Below, piece by piece: positions 41,785-47,280 of a DNA stretch of 64,000 nucleotides (positions within the stretch are counted from its first letter, which is position 1; each line of letters opens with the position of its first letter). Under the pieces are notes generated by a model. The model was not told the origin of the DNA. It searched no databases and saw only the letters and a list, made by a program, of their open reading frames with translations. The position numbers and the translations under genes are program-made. The stretch comes from an uncultured Eubacteriales bacterium (GTDB taxonomy: Bacteria; Bacillota; Clostridia; Oscillospirales; UBA644), in assembly GCA_959604355.1 (NCBI GenBank), contig CAUHAO010000008.1, positions 1,784 to 65,783 of the forward strand. The letters run 5' to 3'.

Positions 41785-42711
41785 ATGAAAAAGAAAAATG
41801 AGGCGGTTTCGCTTCTTCTGATAGTCATCGCGGGCATCTCGTGGGGCTTCACGGGCATTTTTGCGCGCTATTTCCAGAATATGGGTGTCGATTCCGCGTC
41901 CGTCACCGCAATACGCATCGTTTCCGCGGCAATATGCCTCACTCTGACGCTGTTTTTCTATGACAGGTCTCTTTTTCGCATAAAATTCCGTGATATATGG
42001 ATATTCCTCTGCACGGGTCTTGTGAGCCTGCTTGTGCAGACGCTTCTTTATTTTAAATGTATGCACCTTACGTCCATCGCCGTCGCCGCAGTGCTCCTTT
42101 ACACCGCTCCCATGTTCGTCATTCTGCTTTCGGCGCTCATTTTCAAGGAAAAGCTCACCGCCGTCAAATGCGTGTCCGTCATTATCGCCGTCGTCGGCTG
42201 CGGCTTCGTCACAGGTATTTTCGGCGCGCCCCAATCCGTCAACGTCACGGGCATCCTGTTCGGTCTCGGCGCGGGCCTCGGCTACGCGTCATACTCAATT
42301 TTCAGCCGCTTTGCGATAAACCGCGGCTACCGCTCGCTCACGATAACGCTCTACACGTTCCTGCTCTCGCTGCTCGGCATCGTCCCGATGCTTCTTATAA
42401 TGAAGTCCGATATCTCTGTCACGCTCTCCGCGTTCCGCACCGGCGGCACCCTCGCCGTACTCATGGCACTCGGTATGGGAATTATCGGCGCGGCGCTTCC
42501 GTATATGCTCTATACGATGGGACTTGAAGGCACCGAGGGCGGCAAAGCGTCCGTAACAGCGTCCGTCGAACCCGTCGCCGCCGCGATATTGGGCTTGATA
42601 TTCTACGGCGAAAAGCTTTCGCCGCTCGTCATCTTCGGAATGGCGCTTGTCATTTTCGCTATCGTCCTTACTTCCGGTGTCATCAAATCCAGAAAGGGTG
42701 GGAATAAATGA
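41785..42711 (+). CDS. EamA/DMT-family transporter
   Basis: 308 aa, 10 TM segments, ..AGISWGFTGIF... It overlaps the nrdG start (ATGA). Confidence 0.8.
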   Translation: MKKKNEAVSLLLIVIAGISWGFTGIFARYFQNMGVDSASVTAIRIVSAAICLTLTLFFYDRSLFRIKFRDIWIFLCTGLVSLLVQTLLYFKCMHLTSIAVAAVLLYTAPMFVILLSALIFKEKLTAVKCVSVIIAVVGCGFVTGIFGAPQSVNVTGILFGLGAGLGYASYSIFSRFAINRGYRSLTITLYTFLLSLLGIVPMLLIMKSDISVTLSAFRTGGTLAVLMALGMGIIGAALPYMLYTMGLEGTEGGKASVTASVEPVAAAILGLIFYGEKLSPLVIFGMALVIFAIVLTSGVIKSRKGGNK

Positions 42712-43394
42712 TTTTCAGCGGCTTGCAAAAACTTTCTCTTCTCGATTTTCCCGCGCACACCGCTTGCACGGTGTTCACGCCCGGGTGTAATTTCCGTTGT
42801 CCGTTTTGCCATAACGCGTCCGTCGTGCTCGACGAGGCGGAGCAGATAGACGAGAGTGAGGTTCTCGCCTTGCTCGACAAGCGCAAGGGGATCCTTGACG
42901 GTGTTGCCGTCACCGGCGGTGAGCCTCTGATGCACCCCGAGCTCGAAGGCTTTCTCGAAAAAGTCAAGCAGAAGGGCTTTCTCGTCAAGCTCGACACGAA
43001 CGGCTCTTACCCCGAACGTCTTGCGGCTCTCGTGCGCGCGGGGCTCGTTGACCGCGTCGCGATGGATATAAAAAACAGCCGCGAAAAATACGCCGTTACC
43101 TCAGGCGCGCCCGCGCTCAATATAAATAAGATAGAGCAAAGCGTCTCTTTCCTGCTTTCCGGCACCGTCGATTACGAATTTCGCACTACCGTCGTCAAGG
43201 GGCTGCATACCGAGGACGATTTCCGCGCGATAGGCGAGTGGATACGCGGCGCAAAAGAGTATTTTCTGCAGTCTTTCGTCAATTCCGGCGACATTCTCGG
43301 CTCGGGCTGCGATGCGTTTCCGCCCGAACAAATGCAGGCTTTTGCCGACATAGTCCGCCCGTATGTAAAGGCGGTAGCCTTGCGTGGTATCTGA
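42708..43394 (+). CDS. nrdG: Anaerobic ribonucleoside-triphosphate reductase activating protein (radical SAM)
   Basis: ..QKLSLLDFP......VFT.GCNFRCPFCHN.. (CxxxCxxC) and ..GVAVTGGEPL... Confidence 0.9.
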   Translation: MIFSGLQKLSLLDFPAHTACTVFTPGCNFRCPFCHNASVVLDEAEQIDESEVLALLDKRKGILDGVAVTGGEPLMHPELEGFLEKVKQKGFLVKLDTNGSYPERLAALVRAGLVDRVAMDIKNSREKYAVTSGAPALNINKIEQSVSFLLSGTVDYEFRTTVVKGLHTEDDFRAIGEWIRGAKEYFLQSFVNSGDILGSGCDAFPPEQMQAFADIVRPYVKAVALRGI

Positions 43395-43444: not shown

Positions 43445-43473
43445 TTGACAATCGCAGATTTATGTGCTATAAT
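43445..43473 (+). promoter_or_regulatory. Perfect sigma-A consensus promoter with a TGn extension, for nrdD
   Basis: ttgaca at 43445-43450 and tgc-tataat at 43465-43473, with a 17-nt spacer. Confidence 0.65.
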
Positions 43474-43581: not shown

Positions 43582-45996
43582 TTGTATCAGGTAATCAAAA
43601 GAAACGGTTCGATCGCTGAATTCGACATTTCAAAGATAAGCGACGCAATCCGCAAGGCATTCGAGGCGCAGCAGAAACAGTATCATCCCAGCATAATTGA
43701 CTTGCTCGCGCTCAAAGTTACGGCAGACTTTGAGCCGAAGGTCAAGGACGGCAAGATCGCCGTTGAGGACATTCAGGACAGCGCGGAATCCGTGCTCATC
43801 CAGGCGGGTTACGCGGACGTCGCGAAAGCGTACATACTTTATCGCCGTCAGCGCGAGAAGCTGCGTGAGATGAAGAACGCGATGCTCGACTACAAAGAGA
43901 TAGTTGACAGCTACGTCAAAGTCACCGACTGGCGCGTCAAGGAGAATTCCACCGTCACATATTCCGTCGGCGGACTTATCCTTTCCAACTCGGGCGCGAT
44001 AACATCCCGTTACTGGCTGTCCGAGATATACGACGACGAAATATCAAACGCACACCGCAACGCGGATATACATATCCATGACCTTTCGATGCTCACGGGC
44101 TATTGCGCTGGATGGTCTCTGCGCCAGCTCATCAAGGAAGGCCTCGGCGGTGTTCCCGGCAAGATAACATCCTCTCCCGCAAGCCACCTTGCGACCCTCT
44201 GCAACCAGATGGTCAACTTCCTCGGCATAATGCAGAACGAATGGGCGGGCGCTCAGGCGTTTTCGTCTTTCGATACGTACCTTGCGCCGTTCGTCAAGGT
44301 CGATAATCTTACCTATGACCAGGTCAAGAAGAGCATCGAGTCTTTCATTTACGGCGTGAACACTCCCAGCCGGTGGGGCACTCAGGCACCCTTCTCCAAC
44401 ATCACCCTTGACTGGACCGTTCCCGCGGATCTCGCGGAGCAGAATTGTATCGTCGGCGGCAAGGAAATGCCGTTCAAATACAAGGACTGCCAGAAAGAAA
44501 TGGACATCGTCAACAAGGCGTTCATCGAGATCATGATTGAGGGCGACGCTAACGGACGCGGGTTCCAGTATCCCATTCCGACCTACTCCATCACAAAGGA
44601 TTTCGATTGGTCGGACACCGAAAACAACCGTCTGCTCTTCGAGATGACTGCCAAATACGGCACACCTTATTTCTCCAATTACGTCAACAGCGACATGCAG
44701 CCCAGCGACGTGCGCAGTATGTGCTGCCGTCTGCGTCTCGATCTGCGTGAACTCCGCAAGAAGTCGGGCGGCTTCTTCGGCAGCGGCGAAAGCACGGGCT
44801 CTGTCGGCGTTGTTACGATAAACATTCCGCGTATCGCGTATCTCGCGTCGGACGAGGCGGATTTCTACAAACGCCTCGACCACATGATGGATATTTCCGC
44901 TCGCTCGCTCAAGATAAAGCGCGATATCATCACCAAACTCCTCGACGAAGGGCTCTATCCGTATACGAAACGTTACCTCGGCACGTTCAACAACCACTTC
45001 TCGACCATCGGTCTTGTCGGAATGAACGAGGCGGGACTCAACGCGAAGTGGATCCGCAAGGATATGACTCATCCCGAAACTCAGGAGTTCTCCAAGAACG
45101 TACTCAACCATATGCGCGAACGTCTTTCCGACTACCAGGAAAAATACGGAGACCTGTTCAACCTCGAAGCGACCCCCGCGGAGAGCACGGCGTTCCGTCT
45201 GGCAAAGCATGACGTGAAGCGTTATCCCGATATCATCACAGCCTCTCAGAACGGCGGCACACCTTATTACACCAACTCGTCGCATCTGCCCGTCGGATAC
45301 ACCTCGGATATATTCGACGCGCTCGATATCCAGGACGAATTGCAGACCCTTTACACATCGGGTACGGTGTTCCACGCGTTCCTCGGCGAAAAGCTTCCCG
45401 ACTGGAAGAGCGCCGCGACACTCGTGCGCAAGATCTCCGAAAACTACAAATTGCCTTATTACACCCTCTCTCCGACATATTCCGTCTGCCGCACACACGG
45501 ATATATCGCGGGTGAACAGTATAAATGCCCCATCTGCGGGGAAACTACCGAAGTGTACAGCCGTATAACGGGCTATTACAGACCTGTCCAGAACTGGAAC
45601 GACGGTAAGACCGAAGAATTCAAGCAGAGAAAGGTTTACGATATCGCAAACTCTCATCTCACGCACTCCGGACCCGTTGACCGTGCCAGCTCATGCTGCT
45701 CCTCCGCCGGAGCGCAGGTCACAGTCGACACCGAGGCTCTCGGCAACGTGGATGTCGCGACGAAAACGTTCGAACTCTTCACCACCAAGACATGCCCGAA
45801 CTGCAAAGTCGCGGCGGCGATGCTCGAAAATGAGGGTATCGAATACGTCAAGACGGACGCGGAGAGCGATCCCGAGCGCACGAAGAGCTACGGCATCATG
45901 CAGGCGCCCACCCTCATCGTCACTTCACCCGACGGCACATACGAAAAATATGTCGGCGTGTGGGATATCAAGAAAATGATACAGGAACATAAATAA
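43582..45996 (+). CDS. nrdD: Anaerobic ribonucleoside-triphosphate reductase (class III) with a fused C-terminal NrdH/glutaredoxin-like domain
   Basis: TTG start. ATP-cone ..VIKRNGSIAEFDISKISDAIRKAF... Finger-loop ..RSMCCRLRLD... Zn site ..YKCPICGE... Glycyl-radical motif ..SRITGYYRPVQNWN.GK..E...R. About 117 extra residues follow, ending in KTFELFTTKTCPNCKVAAAMLENEGIEYVKTD...MQAPTLIV... Confidence 0.93.
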   Translation: MYQVIKRNGSIAEFDISKISDAIRKAFEAQQKQYHPSIIDLLALKVTADFEPKVKDGKIAVEDIQDSAESVLIQAGYADVAKAYILYRRQREKLREMKNAMLDYKEIVDSYVKVTDWRVKENSTVTYSVGGLILSNSGAITSRYWLSEIYDDEISNAHRNADIHIHDLSMLTGYCAGWSLRQLIKEGLGGVPGKITSSPASHLATLCNQMVNFLGIMQNEWAGAQAFSSFDTYLAPFVKVDNLTYDQVKKSIESFIYGVNTPSRWGTQAPFSNITLDWTVPADLAEQNCIVGGKEMPFKYKDCQKEMDIVNKAFIEIMIEGDANGRGFQYPIPTYSITKDFDWSDTENNRLLFEMTAKYGTPYFSNYVNSDMQPSDVRSMCCRLRLDLRELRKKSGGFFGSGESTGSVGVVTINIPRIAYLASDEADFYKRLDHMMDISARSLKIKRDIITKLLDEGLYPYTKRYLGTFNNHFSTIGLVGMNEAGLNAKWIRKDMTHPETQEFSKNVLNHMRERLSDYQEKYGDLFNLEATPAESTAFRLAKHDVKRYPDIITASQNGGTPYYTNSSHLPVGYTSDIFDALDIQDELQTLYTSGTVFHAFLGEKLPDWKSAATLVRKISENYKLPYYTLSPTYSVCRTHGYIAGEQYKCPICGETTEVYSRITGYYRPVQNWNDGKTEEFKQRKVYDIANSHLTHSGPVDRASSCCSSAGAQVTVDTEALGNVDVATKTFELFTTKTCPNCKVAAAMLENEGIEYVKTDAESDPERTKSYGIMQAPTLIVTSPDGTYEKYVGVWDIKKMIQEHK

Positions 45997-46015
45997 TTAT
46001 CCGAATACATAACGA

Positions 46016-46040
46016 AAAGCCCGATATTTCGGGCTTTTCG
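46016..46040 (+). terminator. Intrinsic terminator after nrdD
   Basis: aaaagcccga-tattt-cgggctttt hairpin followed by a T-run. Confidence 0.8.
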
Positions 46041-46046
46041 TTCAAT

Positions 46047-46137
46047 AAGGCTCAGCGCTTTACGAATACGCAATGCCTTACGAAGGCTCAATGCTTTACG
46101 AATACGCAATGCCTTACGAAGGCTCAATGCTTTACGG
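46047..46137. repeat. 36-bp tandem repeat x2.5
   Basis: aaggctca(g/a)(c/t)gctttacgaatacgcaatgccttacg begins at 46047, 46083 and 46119 (the last partial). Confidence 0.9.
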
Positions 46138-46159
46138 CACGGCGGATTTATTGCACAAA

Positions 46160-46255
46160 CGGCTCCTTCAGCGCCGCGCGAAAGTCCTGCGGACTTTCGG
46201 CGACGGTCTGCGACCGTCGCGCTTTGCTGCGCAAAGCCGCGCGGCGCGCCTGCGT
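46160..46255. repeat. GC-rich stacked-hairpin element (copy D)
   Basis: gaaagtcCTGCGgactttc, gacggtCTGCGaccgtc and ctttgCTGCGcaaag lie back to back. All three share the CTGCG loop. Confidence 0.6.
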
Positions 46256-46305
46256 AAAACATACTTTCACGTCCCCGCAAATCACATCTTAAGGAGACAA
46301 AATCA

Positions 46306-47217
46306 ATGAAAAAATACGACATCATCATCGTCGGCGCGGGCACAGCCGGCATGACCGCCGCGATATACGCTCTGCGCGCGGGAAAATCCGTCTGCATATT
46401 CGAAAACGAGGTGTTTGGCGGACAGATATCTTATTCCCCCAGAGTTGAGAATTACCCCGGAATCCCGTCCGTAAGCGGCGCGGACTTCTCGGACGCGCTC
46501 GTCACACAGATAACGGCGCTCGGCGCGACGATTGAGCTTGAAAACGTCATATCCGTCACCGTCAACGGCGACGGCACGAAAAAAGTCGTTACGGACTGGA
46601 ACGAGTACGAGTGCAGGGCGGTCATTCTCGCAACGGGCTCAAAACACCGCAAGCTCGGCGTCGAAAGAGAAGACGAGCTCGTCGGAAAAGGCGTGTCGTA
46701 CTGCGCGGTATGCGACGGTGCGTTTTACAAGGGCAAGCCCGTCGCGGTCGTCGGAGGCGGCTCAACGGCGCTTCAGGACGCGATATTCCTCTCCGCGTAT
46801 TGCTCTTCGGTTACACTCATTCACCGCCGCGACGAATTCCGCGGCGAGGAAAGACTTGTAAAGACCCTGCAAACAAAGGGCAACGTCAGCTTCATACTCA
46901 ACAGCACCGTCAAAAGCCTTGACGGCGCGAGCCGCATCGAGGGCGTCACCGTGACGGATAAAATAACGGGTGCGGAAACGAAAATACCCGTTGACGGCCT
47001 TTTCGTCGCCGTCGGGCAGATGCCTCGGAACGAAAAATTCGCAAACATCGTCACGCTCGATGACTACGGCTACATCGCTTCGGGCGAGGATTGCCGCACA
47101 AGTACGGACGGCGTTTTCGCCGCGGGCGACTGCCGTACGAAAACTCTCCGTCAGCTCACCACCGCCGCCGCCGACGGTGCCGTCGCAGGTACCGCCGCCG
47201 CCGAATACTGCGATTGA
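46306..47217 (+). CDS. trxB: Thioredoxin-disulfide reductase
   Basis: GxGxxG ..IIIVGAGTAGMTAA.., redox centre ..CAVCDG.. and a second dinucleotide fold ..VVGGGSTALQDA... Confidence 0.93.
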   Translation: MKKYDIIIVGAGTAGMTAAIYALRAGKSVCIFENEVFGGQISYSPRVENYPGIPSVSGADFSDALVTQITALGATIELENVISVTVNGDGTKKVVTDWNEYECRAVILATGSKHRKLGVEREDELVGKGVSYCAVCDGAFYKGKPVAVVGGGSTALQDAIFLSAYCSSVTLIHRRDEFRGEERLVKTLQTKGNVSFILNSTVKSLDGASRIEGVTVTDKITGAETKIPVDGLFVAVGQMPRNEKFANIVTLDDYGYIASGEDCRTSTDGVFAAGDCRTKTLRQLTTAAADGAVAGTAAAEYCD

Positions 47218-47246
47218 AAATCCCGAACGACCCCGTGAAGATACAA

Positions 47247-47280
47247 AAAGATATCCGCGCGATACGCGGATATCTTTTCT
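47247..47280. terminator. Bidirectional intrinsic terminator between trxB and the convergent ligase gene
   Basis: aaagatatccgcg-cgata-cgcggatatcttt with A/T runs on both sides. Confidence 0.8.

Follow-up and report, generated by a model that had tools for sequence, protein, structure and literature searches.

The locus analyzed here, located in a 64,000-nucleotide stretch of DNA (hereafter the window) from gut-type Clostridia, carries a class III ribonucleotide reductase (RNR) gene, nrdD, whose product is covalently extended by a redoxin domain, with the activase gene nrdG upstream and the thioredoxin reductase gene trxB downstream. This NrdD-redoxin arrangement is genuine and is kept in hundreds of species; we show its domain architecture and fold, and we show that the three proteins retain their catalytic residues and that the synteny of their genes is conserved. 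According to these data, the locus probably constitutes a self-contained redoxin-dependent class III RNR system, in which electrons would pass from NADPH to TrxB, to the tethered redoxin and finally to the NrdD active-site disulfide.

Architecture of the fused protein

The fusion gene (43582-45996; all features given here lie on the + strand) has a TTG start and encodes 804 aa, sequentially organized in an ATP-cone domain (aa 3-92, 43588-43857; PF03477, 78 bits), a core comprising the class III catalytic barrel and the glycyl-radical domain (aa 121-686, 43942-45639; PF13597 NRDD, 626 bits), a disordered linker (~38 aa), and a thioredoxin-fold domain of 76 aa. NCBIfam NF006126 spans aa 1-688 (1131 bits), and the closest solved structure to the core is that of Thermotoga maritima NrdD (4COI/4U3E; E = 4e-42). 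The Zn-ribbon (C636-x2-H639 ... C649-x2-C652) and the glycyl-radical motif RITG664YY (45487-45579) occupy invariant or near-invariant alignment columns and align to the Gly621 region of the T. maritima enzyme. An earlier note on this DNA had described an 804-aa NrdD with a glycyl-radical motif, an SSCCSS linker and a CPNC module, preceded by nrdG and followed by trxB, and all these elements were recovered, with RITGYY at aa 661-666, SSCCSS at aa 703-708, CPNC at aa 738-741, and the KTFELF segment beginning at nt 45763. The full-length AF2 model (mean pLDDT 60; ATP-cone 79-90) was too poor to tell whether the tail docks on the core.

The tail (aa 729-804, 45766-45993) is a minimal thioredoxin-fold domain, with the CPNC motif at nt 45793-45804 and the cis-Pro motif QAPTL at aa 774-778 (nt 45901-45915). 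Pfam Glutaredoxin matches aa 731-768 at 24.9 bits when the whole protein is searched and at 29.0 bits with the tail alone, both exceeding the gathering cutoff of 22.9 bits; furthermore, the AF2 model of the tail has a pLDDT of 92.2 and a β-α-β-α-β-β-α topology, and its best Foldseek matches are thioredoxins (probability 1.0, TM ~0.7), which bears out the thioredoxin fold previously proposed for this module. Its designation as NrdH-like, taken as family membership, was rejected, with TIGR02194 scores of 15-20 bits against a cutoff of 85.75, and neither CVQC nor WSGFRP is present in the tail. In profile and fold searches the domain is closer to thioredoxins, MJ0307 and PDO, and it forms a clade of its own found almost exclusively on NrdD. 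The best sequence matches, namely MJ0307/TIGR00411, YruB/TIGR02196 and the C-terminal unit of PDO, share with the tail a four-stranded thioredoxin fold of ~80 aa with a CPxC motif and lacking the N-terminal βα unit of classical thioredoxins; however, the tail scores 27-31 bits against family cutoffs of 89-93, and the members of these families are free-standing proteins, whereas the tail is tethered to NrdD.

The linker (aa 690-728, 45649-45765) includes the vicinal pair C705-C706 (nt 45694-45699), displays a pLDDT of 23-28 with no secondary structure in the full-length model, and is hypervariable, its alignment columns being unconserved and gap-rich and its length ranging from 3 to 56 aa across orthologues. 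A close Cys pair (CxC or CC) occurs in the linker of 31 of 80 orthologues (~40%), compared with 11.2±2.6 in shuffles. Conversely, both cysteines of CPNC (C738 and C741), whose conservation was in question, are kept in all 80 species loci, and conservation of the cis-Pro motif is 91-99% (P776, 99%). Since the CxxC and cis-Pro are conserved while the linker drifts in sequence and length, selection acts on redox chemistry and tethering rather than on a rigid interface.

Distribution of the fusion

The fusion was found in at least 598 species-level genomes, belonging to several orders of Clostridia and to some Lentisphaeria, and some carriers, for example Pseudoflavonifractor phocaeensis and Lacrimispora sp., are cultured isolates. 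From these matches, 80 species-level genome loci were retained for the locus survey, and the tail is encoded in frame in all 80. The best 120 database homologues (≥77% identity, from many independent assemblies) all have lengths fitting the fused form, with CPNC in 118, CPKC in one, and one not matched by the motif pattern; likewise, all 21 matches on viral contigs are fused. Taken together, the homologues, the in-frame species loci and the viral contigs exclude the frame-merging assembly error that had been considered as a source of the fusion. At one locus of the survey (L025), a second, different NrdD adjoins the fused one.

Gene neighbourhood

The upstream gene nrdG (42708-43394) encodes a 228-aa radical-SAM enzyme that activates NrdD (TIGR02495 NrdG2, 203 bits against a cutoff of 131, and a Pfam Radical_SAM match), with CxxxCxxC at aa 27-34; its start overlaps by 4 nt the stop of an upstream transporter-like ORF. 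In 58/76 loci, an nrdG gene precedes the fused nrdD at a distance of at most 500 bp. A consensus scan placed a promoter-like site upstream of nrdD (43445-43473; TTGACA, 17 nt, TG-TATAAT), a pattern match in 12/12 positions, and no Rfam element was found in the ~100-nt nrdD leader.

The downstream gene trxB (46306-47217) encodes a low-Mr thioredoxin reductase of 303 aa (TIGR01292, 342.6 bits against a cutoff of 343.45), with the motifs GKG (aa 127-129), CAVCDG (aa 133-138), GGGSTA (aa 150-155) and HRRDEFR (aa 173-179), and its best PDB match is the thioredoxin reductase 7AAW, at 257 bits, whereas FFTR (6GNA), a ferredoxin-dependent reductase, reaches 122 bits. The window's TrxB keeps the NADPH signature VxxxHRRDxFR, as defined in PMC5627308, together with the redox CAVC and the thioredoxin-docking residues GKG and Phe. 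Among 63 neighbouring TrxBs, however, 49 have lost the NADPH 2'-phosphate motif, carrying QNLxxxT in place of HRRxxxR, so that NADPH as the electron source fits the present organism and not the clade as a whole. The gene is followed by a terminator-like pattern match at 47246-47278, a hairpin with a 14-bp stem and then a T-run, CTTTATCTAT.

The nrdD-trxB spacer of the window is atypical, being 309 nt long, while orthologous loci have a median gap of 48 nt. It contains, 15 nt past the nrdD stop, a perfect hairpin of 14 bp with a 4-nt loop (46011-46042; inverted repeat 100% complementary, -24.7 kcal/mol, z = -5.84), which may act in termination, attenuation or mRNA stabilisation and was left uncalled by the terminator scan because no long U-tract follows the stem. 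Next to it is a 36-nt tandem repeat of 2.5 copies (46047-46136; TRF score 166, 96% matches), with no further copies elsewhere in the window. Given the strong hairpin and the long spacer, co-transcription of nrdD and trxB in the window is uncertain. Across orders, trxB lies at most 400 bp downstream of the fused nrdD in 59/75 evaluable loci (79%), and 14 of the 75 have no adjacent trxB.

These data also bear on a trivial explanation, according to which the locus would reflect an assembly frame-merge, a decaying domain or a chance synteny with trxB. The unusual spacer, with its hairpin and repeat, could be taken in its favour, as could the precomputed Pfam annotation of many homologues, which omits the tail because it scores near the threshold. 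Against it stand the in-frame fusion in hundreds of independent assemblies, cultured isolates included, a CxxC that is 100% conserved while the linker varies, the pLDDT of 92 of the tail, and the adjacency of trxB in 79% of loci across orders; in practice, this explanation is already refuted, and we assign it a negligible probability.

Active site of the catalytic core

By alignment to 4COI, the βA-strand Cys175 lies in GYCAGW (44098-44115) and corresponds to Y124-C125 of T. maritima; the finger-loop M380-C381-C382-R383 (44719-44730), a double-Cys motif with the Met kept, aligns to S328-C-C-R331; and Glu529, within FNLEATPAE (45157-45183), corresponds to E495, which has been proposed to donate the proton in redoxin-type NrdD. 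The YC of the βA strand, MCCR and NLEATP are each kept in 80/80 genome loci, and MCCR also in 18/19 viral loci. The triad of βA-Cys, CC and Glu, which defines the redoxin-using NrdD2 subtype (PMC4493059; PMC9669993; Table 1 of PMC9176816), is therefore complete in all 80 genome loci, as well as in all viral loci in which the probe alignment spanned an uninterrupted site.

The core gives a mixed answer to whether it is of the redoxin or the formate type: the whole Cys-Cys-Glu set is present, and the fused cores also retain the finger-loop Met (M380) used by E. coli NrdD in formate chemistry. In the scheme of finger-loop motif classes set out in PMC9669993, MCCR enzymes are equipped for either reductant, formate or redoxin, and formate use is hence still conceivable; the Met is kept in 83% of double-Cys NrdDs, for which dual reductant use was raised as a possibility (PMC9669993). 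Accordingly, the MCCR-plus-Glu core might take formate when present and resort to the tethered redoxin and TrxB when formate is scarce. This proposal draws on the strict conservation of the Met, the second Cys and the Glu, and on its outright statement for Met-keeping double-Cys NrdDs in that work; however, no class III RNR is known to work with the two reductants, conservation of the Met may be structural, and the separate NrdD at L025 suggests that different enzymes, rather than a single one, divide the labour. We regard dual use as improbable.

The redoxin might alternatively serve activation and maintenance, keeping the cysteines of the Zn-ribbon and glycyl-radical domain (C636, C649, C652) or other thiols reduced for radical installation by NrdG, and for re-installation after transient oxidation, with formate or free thioredoxin as the turnover reductant. 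According to Padovani 2001 (cited in PMC4390871), thioredoxin activates the formate-dependent class III RNR of E. coli; the fused cores keep the Met that belongs to formate-type catalysis, and the redoxin is attached right behind the glycyl-radical and Zn-ribbon module; in some viral variants, which lack the ATP-cone, a linker of only ~5-10 residues sets it beside that module, limiting the reach of the tail, and a target near the glycyl-radical domain fits these variants at least as well as the active site does. On the other hand, a dedicated syntenic reductase suits the stoichiometric electron demand of each turnover better than occasional repair, and the fusion was observed only on complete Cys-Cys-Glu cores and never on MGCR cores, an argument confounded by the membership of all fused sequences in one clade. 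We consider a role limited to activation and maintenance unlikely, and favour reduction of the active site by the tethered redoxin.

Relation to known systems

With at least 598 species-level genomes the fusion is not rare, and it was not wholly unnoticed either, since a single RefSeq case, 'Glutaredoxin:NrdD' of Lachnospiraceae bacterium TWA4 (NrdDd, WP_082039398.1), appears as an uncharacterised row in Table S1 of a 2018 study (PMC6187632). This entry, also from Clostridia and of subclass NrdDd, probably represents the same clade and the same architecture, presumably with its redoxin domain at the C-terminus, but its distribution, active site, synteny and function were not analysed there. 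Our literature search returned no biochemical study of an NrdD-redoxin fusion, in line with the earlier note, nor any assayed enzyme of subclass NrdDd.

Wei et al. reportedly described in 2015 an NrdH-like redoxin in the RNR operon of Methanosarcina barkeri, reduced by ferredoxin:disulfide reductase. The NrdD3 of this archaeon resembles the fused locus in having a dedicated small redoxin and a reductase genetically linked to nrdD (Table 1 of PMC9176816). It differs in its separate redoxin gene, its core without Glu and Met (QCCR/A) and its Fe-S reductase, whereas the fused locus has the redoxin as part of NrdD, a core with both Glu and Met, and a flavoprotein, TrxB, as the reductase.

The NrdD2 enzymes of Neisseria bacilliformis and T. 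maritima (4U3E/4COI) share with the fused protein a glycyl-radical NrdD with βA Cys, CC finger loop and Glu, an NrdG2-type activase and, as is proposed for the fused protein, a protein dithiol reductant recycled by thioredoxin reductase. The N. bacilliformis enzyme is described, in secondary citations (PMC9669993, PMC4493059, PMC4390871), as running on thioredoxin, thioredoxin reductase and NADPH. Known NrdD2 enzymes, however, use free thioredoxin and carry SCCR without the Met, while the fused NrdD has MCCR, an ATP-cone, a covalent redoxin and trxB in the cluster; the lineages are also distant, as judged from the E = 4e-42 to T. maritima NrdD and from the NrdDd classification of the one catalogued fusion.

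The closest functional precedent is Grx::ATP-cone::NrdB of Facklamia ignava, in which a CxxC redoxin is covalently placed on an RNR subunit and the fused Grx was experimentally shown to be the class I RNR reductant (PMC6187632). There, the radical-generating subunit, in an aerobic class I RNR, bears at its N-terminus a GSH-dependent GrxC-type domain that targets the class I C-terminal Cys pair, whereas the present redoxin extends the C-terminus of the catalytic subunit, which carries the glycyl radical, and has no classical CPYC motif.

Proposed mechanism

We infer every electron-transfer step, as well as the preference for redoxin over formate. NrdG would place the glycyl radical on G664, and in each turnover the active-site Cys pair, formed by βA C175 and either C381 or C382 of MCCR, would be oxidised to a disulfide, with E529 as the putative proton donor. 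The minimal thioredoxin domain (C738-P-N-C741), swinging on its disordered ~38-residue tether, would then re-reduce the disulfide of its own or of the partner subunit, with the linker Cys pair present in ~40% of orthologues, here C705-C706, as a possible relay. The oxidised redoxin would be recycled by the TrxB encoded directly downstream, presumably fed by NADPH in the present organism. The self-contained electron path of the earlier note is supported with regard to the fold, the CxxC, the trxB synteny and the Cys-Cys-Glu core, and it is amended in the NrdH label, in the use of NADPH, which does not hold for the whole clade, and in the retention of the formate-linked Met. Most likely, the tethered domain lets an oxygen-sensitive RNR carry its own electron supply.

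Domain architecture and gene neighborhood of the fused nrdD

The open reading frame (ORF) at 43582-45996 on the forward strand encodes an 804-aa protein, in which a Pfam ATP-cone (aa 3-92) is followed by a class III ribonucleotide reductase (RNR) catalytic domain (aa 121-686; PF13597, 626 bits against a cutoff of 26) and by a thioredoxin-superfamily match (aa 731-800; Pfam/NCBIfam). The NCBIfam models NF006126 (aa 1-688; 1131 bits, cutoff 548) and TIGR02487 (509 bits, cutoff 326) were also matched, and the glycyl-radical motif RITG664YY (aa 661-666), which aligns to Gly621 of Thermotoga maritima NrdD, is preceded by a Zn-ribbon (C636-x2-H ... C649-x2-C652), both being invariant or nearly so in the orthologue alignment. 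Together with the nearby nrdG, these domain scores and motifs identify the ORF, at the sequence level, as the catalytic subunit of a class III RNR (NrdD). The glycyl-radical domain is joined to a C-terminal tail (aa 729-804) by a linker (45649-45765, forward strand) that contains the motif SSCCSS (aa 703-708), with the C705-C706 pair encoded at 45694-45699; the sequence KTFELF starts at nt 45763, and the CPNC motif of the tail occupies aa 738-741. The positions that an earlier note on this DNA had quoted for RITGYY, SSCCSS, CPNC and KTFELF were all correct, and its placement of nrdG just upstream and of trxB downstream was borne out: nrdG (42708-43394, forward strand) encodes a NrdG2-type radical-SAM activase (TIGR02495, 203 bits, cutoff 131), and trxB (46306-47217, forward strand), judging from its best PDB matches, a low-Mr thioredoxin reductase, with a TIGR01292 score of 342.6 bits that falls 0.85 bit short of the cutoff of 343.45.

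The spacer between nrdD and trxB measures 309 nt in the window, the median across other species being 48 nt (best 80 of at least 598 loci). It contains a perfect 14-bp hairpin (46011-46042; -24.7 kcal/mol, z = -5.8), 2.5 tandem copies of a 36-nt repeat with an 18-nt sub-periodicity (46047-46136), an array absent from the rest of the window, and a GC-rich stretch (46140-46260); the repeat array looks like a local insertion. Ahead of nrdD, pattern matching found a σ70-like promoter with a 12/12 match (43445-43473), and a search of the nrdG-nrdD spacer for NrdR boxes and riboswitches gave no match. Upstream of nrdG, a 308-aa ORF (41785-42711), whose translation looks like a multi-pass membrane protein, has a stop that overlaps the nrdG start codon by 4 nt; this overlap suggests that nrdG is translationally coupled to the upstream ORF, while nrdD has its own consensus promoter.

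Occurrence of the fusion in genomes and viral contigs

With one genome scanned for each GTDB species, at least 600 pattern matches were obtained, of which at least 598 were confirmed. The tail is in frame with NrdD in all of the 80 loci examined (the best 80 of at least 598), the fused-form length was found in each of the 120 best database homologues, which share 77-100% identity and derive from many independent assemblies, and the tail profile recovered 21 loci from IMG/VR viral contigs, 21 of which are NrdD fusions. The in-frame fusion described in the earlier note was thus borne out, and an assembly or frameshift artefact is excluded. A regular expression found CPNC in 118 of the 120 homologues and CPKC in one, the remaining one being missed by the anchor.

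Carriers among the best 80 of the at least 598 loci belong to Christensenellales, Oscillospiraceae, Acutalibacteraceae, Lachnospiraceae and Erysipelotrichaceae, as well as to some Lentisphaeria bins, and include the cultured isolates Pseudoflavonifractor phocaeensis and Lacrimispora sp. Loci L045, L054, L061, L062 and L066, from bins labelled Lentisphaeria or Lentisphaerae, encode fused NrdDs 76-77% identical to that of the window, which suggests that the cluster was transferred horizontally from Clostridia, or that these sequences were mis-binned.

When the tail alone was compared with 1.8 billion cluster representatives at 50% identity, 538 matches were obtained (E <= 1e-3), mostly short proteins. 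Many among the best 150 of these 538 start inside the NrdD glycyl-radical domain or the linker, and are therefore regarded as fragments or internal-start gene calls; representatives of ~75 aa may equally be truncated gene calls. Since many of the best matches are NrdD fragments, this redoxin clade appears to reside largely on NrdD. Three short representatives (P0145, P0162 and P0209) join the N-terminus of TrxB directly to a CPNC redoxin sequence; they may represent rare fusions of TrxB with a redoxin, or else gene calls from metagenomes that are chimeric or fragmentary.

Fold and family of the tail domain

The window was aligned, from the glycyl-radical motif onward, with 79 of the 80 species loci (best 80 of at least 598). 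The CPNC cysteines, whose lack of conservation among orthologues was part of a refuting condition in the earlier note, are present in 100% of the 80 sequences (C738 and C741), with P739 conserved in 99%, N740 in 89% and the cis-Pro motif Q-A-P-T-L in 91-99%. The full-length AlphaFold2 model, with a mean pLDDT of 60.5 and a shallow alignment of 78% mean identity, was used solely for the confidence of linker and tail: aa 729-804 reached ~91-95, and the linker 23-28 with no secondary structure. Modelled alone, the tail reached a pLDDT of 92.2 with a β-α-β-α-β-β-α topology (strands 8-13, 35-38, 56-60 and 66-70, and helices 18-29, 43-49 and 72-82, in 83-residue numbering), and the top 50 PDB matches by Foldseek were thioredoxins (probability 1.0, TM ~0.7). 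The tail, as modelled, belongs to the thioredoxin fold and superfamily, its CxxC standing at the start of helix 1 and its cis-Pro before β3.

Profile searches of the kind proposed in the earlier note returned general family matches for the tail alone, both to PF00085 (24.0 bits, cutoff 23.5) and to PF00462 Glutaredoxin (29.0 bits, or 24.9 for the full protein; cutoff 22.9), the latter match being confined to 39 N-terminal positions of a 60-position profile. The curated glutaredoxin equivalogs were not matched (TIGR02181, 25.5 against 90; PRK10638, 21.8 against 129), and the site reads CPNC versus the CPYC type of the classical glutathione-dependent glutaredoxins. Similarly, the tail scored 27 against a cutoff of 96.8 for TrxA (TIGR01068), has TCPNC instead of WCGPC, and, with ~76 aa and four strands, falls outside the TrxA equivalog, the features of which include an N-terminal β1α1 unit.

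The hallmarks of NrdH are a C-V/M-Q-C active site and a WSGFRP motif. The tail has CPNC instead of the former and no sequence resembling the latter, its TIGR02194 scores (15.3 bits for the full protein, 20.2 for the tail) lie far from the cutoff of 85.75, and the PDB profile search places Trx and PDO ahead of NrdH structures, in agreement with the fold ranking; membership of the NrdH family is thus rejected. The best sequence relatives, all far below thresholds, were YruB-type glutaredoxin-like proteins, MJ0307-type small thioredoxins and the C-terminal unit of archaeal PDO. From the original description as "NrdH-like", the thioredoxin fold stood and the family assignment did not; judging from these scores, the tail is a minimal thioredoxin-fold domain forming an NrdD-specific clade, and "NrdH-like" names its proposed job rather than its family.

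Reductant signature of the catalytic core

The closest solved structure to the core is that of T. maritima NrdD (4COI/4U3E; E = 4e-42), and the alignment to it placed Y174-C175 (βA Cys) on Y124-C125, the finger loop M380-C381-C382-R383 (MCCR) on S328-C-C-R331, and E529 (FNLEATPAE) on E495 (FNIEQVPAE). The βA Cys, MCCR and Glu529 are invariant in 80 of 80 genome loci (best 80 of at least 598), as well as in the viral loci with an uninterrupted site. In the formate-dependent NrdD of E. coli, the finger-loop Met forms the thiosulfuranyl radical. According to published classifications, redoxin-using NrdD2 enzymes have a third Cys and an active-site Glu, formate-using NrdD1 enzymes a single Cys and MGCR, and NrdD3 enzymes no Glu (PMC4493059; PMC9669993; Table 1 of PMC9176816). 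Some NrdD2 enzymes carry the finger-loop Met as well (PMC4493059), its absence being a signature of thioredoxin-only clades (PMC9669993); it is kept in 83% of double-Cys NrdDs, which seem equipped for either reductant (Burnim et al., PMC9669993).

Regarding the core signature, which the earlier note had proposed as a check, the third Cys and the Glu of NrdD2 are present, and the finger-loop Met known from formate chemistry is retained as well. Met380 is invariant, which sets this core apart from the thioredoxin-only clades; it is compatible with NrdD2, because some enzymes of that group have it, but would also leave room for formate. A dual-reductant enzyme, using either formate or its redoxin, would be compatible with the retained Met, and we regard it as improbable. 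The reductant cannot be read from the residues of the core by themselves, and the fused redoxin therefore becomes the informative feature.

Linker and its cysteine pair

Among the 80 aligned sequences (best of at least 598), the linker (~aa 692-728 in the window protein) has no conserved column and a length of 3-56 residues, with Ala, Glu, Lys and Pro abundant. At least two cysteines occur in 32 of these 80 linkers, the closest two being no more than four residues apart in 31: 21 CxC, 5 CC (including C705-C706 of the window), 4 CxxC and 1 CxxxC. Within-linker shuffling gave 11.2±2.6 tight pairs versus the 31 observed, a number reached in 0 of 2000 shuffles, and pooling and redistributing the residues gave 21.9±2.2 linkers with two or more cysteines versus 32, all these counts coming from related sequences and hence not representing independent events. 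The position of the pair is variable across the same best 80 linkers of at least 598, and 35 of them are Cys-free, so that the pair is not essential; its presence showed no association with TrxB type (Fisher p = 0.77) or with trxB adjacency (Fisher p = 0.17).

According to Lundin et al. (PMC4390871), class III RNRs lack the flexible C-terminal or external shuttle Cys pair of classes I and II. The linker pair recalls those flexible C-terminal cysteines and, by analogy, could be their class III counterpart; it may act as a relay or as an optional helper, or may simply be tolerated.

Conserved synteny and two types of neighboring TrxB

In 59 of the 75 loci with enough downstream sequence, the gene for a TrxB homologue begins no more than 400 bp after the fused nrdD (median gap 48 nt), a co-occurrence that the earlier note had proposed to survey. 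On the other side, 58 of 76 loci have nrdG no farther than 500 bp upstream, both counts being drawn from the best 80 of at least 598 species loci. This trxB synteny suggests that the tail is reduced by a thioredoxin reductase and not by glutathione. Across taxa, the NrdD cores are ~78% identical versus only ~50% for the neighboring NrdG and TrxB (among the best 80 of at least 598), which indicates conservation of the gene arrangement itself and not a recent copying of the cluster as one block. In 14 loci without an adjacent trxB, unrelated genes lie downstream, and no alternative reductase was recognizable on reading the translated ORFs. One such locus, L025, has in place of trxB a second, different NrdD (207-2369 nt past the fused nrdD stop; 720 aa, with an ATP-cone and the glycyl-radical motif RRTCGYIG), so that two class III RNRs stand side by side.

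The best PDB matches of the window TrxB are all thioredoxin reductases, with up to 257 bits (7AAW) versus 122 bits to the clostridial FFTR 6GNA, which rejects its assignment as FFTR. The NTR signature described in PMC5627308 comprises CxxC, GGGxxA, VxxxHRRDx[F/L]R for the 2'-phosphate, and G[R/K]G plus Phe for thioredoxin docking, and the window TrxB carries it in full (CAVCDG, GGGSTA, VTLIHRRDEFR and GKG...CDGAF). Its NADPH-motif segment (46822-46842) served as comparison point for the orthologous TrxBs: among the neighbors in the best 80 of at least 598 loci, HRRxxxR is present in 14 of 63, and QNLxxxT(GE) in the other 49 (L003, L009, L018, L066 and 45 other loci), which keep GGGN[ST]A and CAVCD. 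The QNL type is likewise rejected as FFTR, the TrxB of L009 (8403-9299) scoring 133 bits to 6GNA versus 251 to the canonical 7AAW.

The three arginines of the HRR...R motif bind the 2'-phosphate of NADPH and, following the reasoning of PMC5627308, their loss argues against NADPH specificity of the QNL-type TrxBs, in which the pyrophosphate motif is retained and NADH would fit as donor. In Clostridia, the number of TrxBs is known to range from two to four, and both NADPH-dependent and NADPH-independent forms occur (PMC10880999). The NADPH donor originally proposed is thus upheld for the window enzyme (HRRDEFR) and not for the clade, in which 49 of 63 neighbors have QNLxxxT, and the conserved module becomes a TrxB-family flavoenzyme, a tethered redoxin and NrdD.

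Variants encoded by viral contigs

Two IMG/VR contigs, L086 (710-4231) and L087 (251-4234), have fused NrdD frames of 1174 and 1328 aa. An in-frame insertion of ~1.1 kb falls precisely on the MCCR finger loop (aa ~381-389 of the query), and L087 has additional insertions close to the βA Cys; inteins located at the catalytic cysteines are the probable explanation. Nine others (L088-L090, L093, L095-L097, L099 and L101) encode fused NrdDs of ~670 aa without the ATP-cone, in which the redoxin motif is CPNC, CPKC or CHNC and the linker has only ~5-10 residues, a short tether that limits the reach of the redoxin.

The attachment of the redoxin so close behind the glycyl-radical/Zn-ribbon module would suit the main rival explanation, namely that the tethered redoxin serves the activation or maintenance of NrdD, as would the activating effect of thioredoxin reported for the E. 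coli enzyme (Padovani, 2001, as cited in PMC4390871). We consider this role unlikely, and favor re-reduction of the active site by the tethered redoxin.

Discussion

With the integration of these findings, the best-supported scheme, which we hold to be probable, is that of the earlier note with corrections. NrdG would install the glycyl radical on the fused NrdD, turnover would oxidize C175 together with C381 or C382 to a disulfide, the tethered CPNC domain would re-reduce it, and TrxB would recycle the oxidized tail, with NADPH as the source in the window organism; each electron-transfer step is deduced from the residues and the fold, together with the fusion and the synteny. From the self-contained path initially proposed (NADPH to TrxB to redoxin to NrdD), the order is kept as the best-supported reading, the NrdH family is dropped, and NADPH is restricted to the window enzyme. 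A broader and doubtful extension is that the fused clade constitutes a class III RNR with a built-in three-stage relay (reductase to tethered thioredoxin, to linker CxC/CC, to active-site disulfide), which may be likened to class I and II RNRs, most modules perhaps being wired to a donor other than NADPH, such as NADH or ferredoxin, because the dedicated TrxB has lost its 2'-phosphate site. If this relay reading were true, a redoxin and not formate would drive the main anaerobic RNR in many gut Clostridia, and the fusion would be genomic evidence bearing directly on which reductant the large MCCR-plus-Glu group uses.

Formate, free thioredoxin and an NrdH-like protein have been shown as class III RNR reductants, each for few enzymes, and NrdDs with MCCR and Glu form the largest double-Cys group, for which either reductant has been proposed. 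Redoxin-dependent class III RNRs and RNR-redoxin fusions are already established, and the Grx::NrdB fusion of Facklamia is a functional reductant (PMC6187632). The RefSeq survey in Table S1 of that work has one "Glutaredoxin:NrdD" (Lachnospiraceae TWA4, subclass NrdDd) without further comment, a single entry that probably reflects the position of the tail at the edge of the Pfam threshold; among the 120 best homologues, many, including the window protein itself, have no precomputed glutaredoxin or thioredoxin match. Our full-text literature search retrieved no paper analyzing or assaying an NrdD-redoxin fusion, in agreement with the earlier note, which knew of no characterized covalent example; a 2022 analysis of RNR insertions and extensions mentions no class III redoxin fusion, and a 2026 GRE review sets class III RNRs aside. 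Several points appear to be new: the large number and wide taxonomic range of the carriers, viral contigs among them; the fact that the fusion goes strictly with the MCCR-plus-Glu core; the conservation of the cluster nrdG-nrdD::trx-trxB; the occurrence of two types of TrxB beside the fused nrdD; and the Cys pair in the linker.

The conservation of the fusion, together with its catalytic residues, in hundreds of Clostridia species from gut and rumen as well as in contigs of putative phages, usually beside a dedicated TrxB, would provide Rosetta-stone-style evidence that the MCCR-plus-Glu group uses a protein dithiol in vivo. For a specialist the finding is useful and only mildly surprising; the fused system is convenient to study, as one polypeptide and one reductase, and offers a direct handle on the reductant of the largest double-Cys group. 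It also raises the questions of whether the linker CxC is a class III counterpart of the shuttle cysteines, and which reductant serves the TrxBs without the NADPH motif. The carrier organisms dominate anaerobic gut communities, and the answer therefore bears on how the supply of dNTPs in these organisms is linked to the metabolism of NADPH, ferredoxin or formate.
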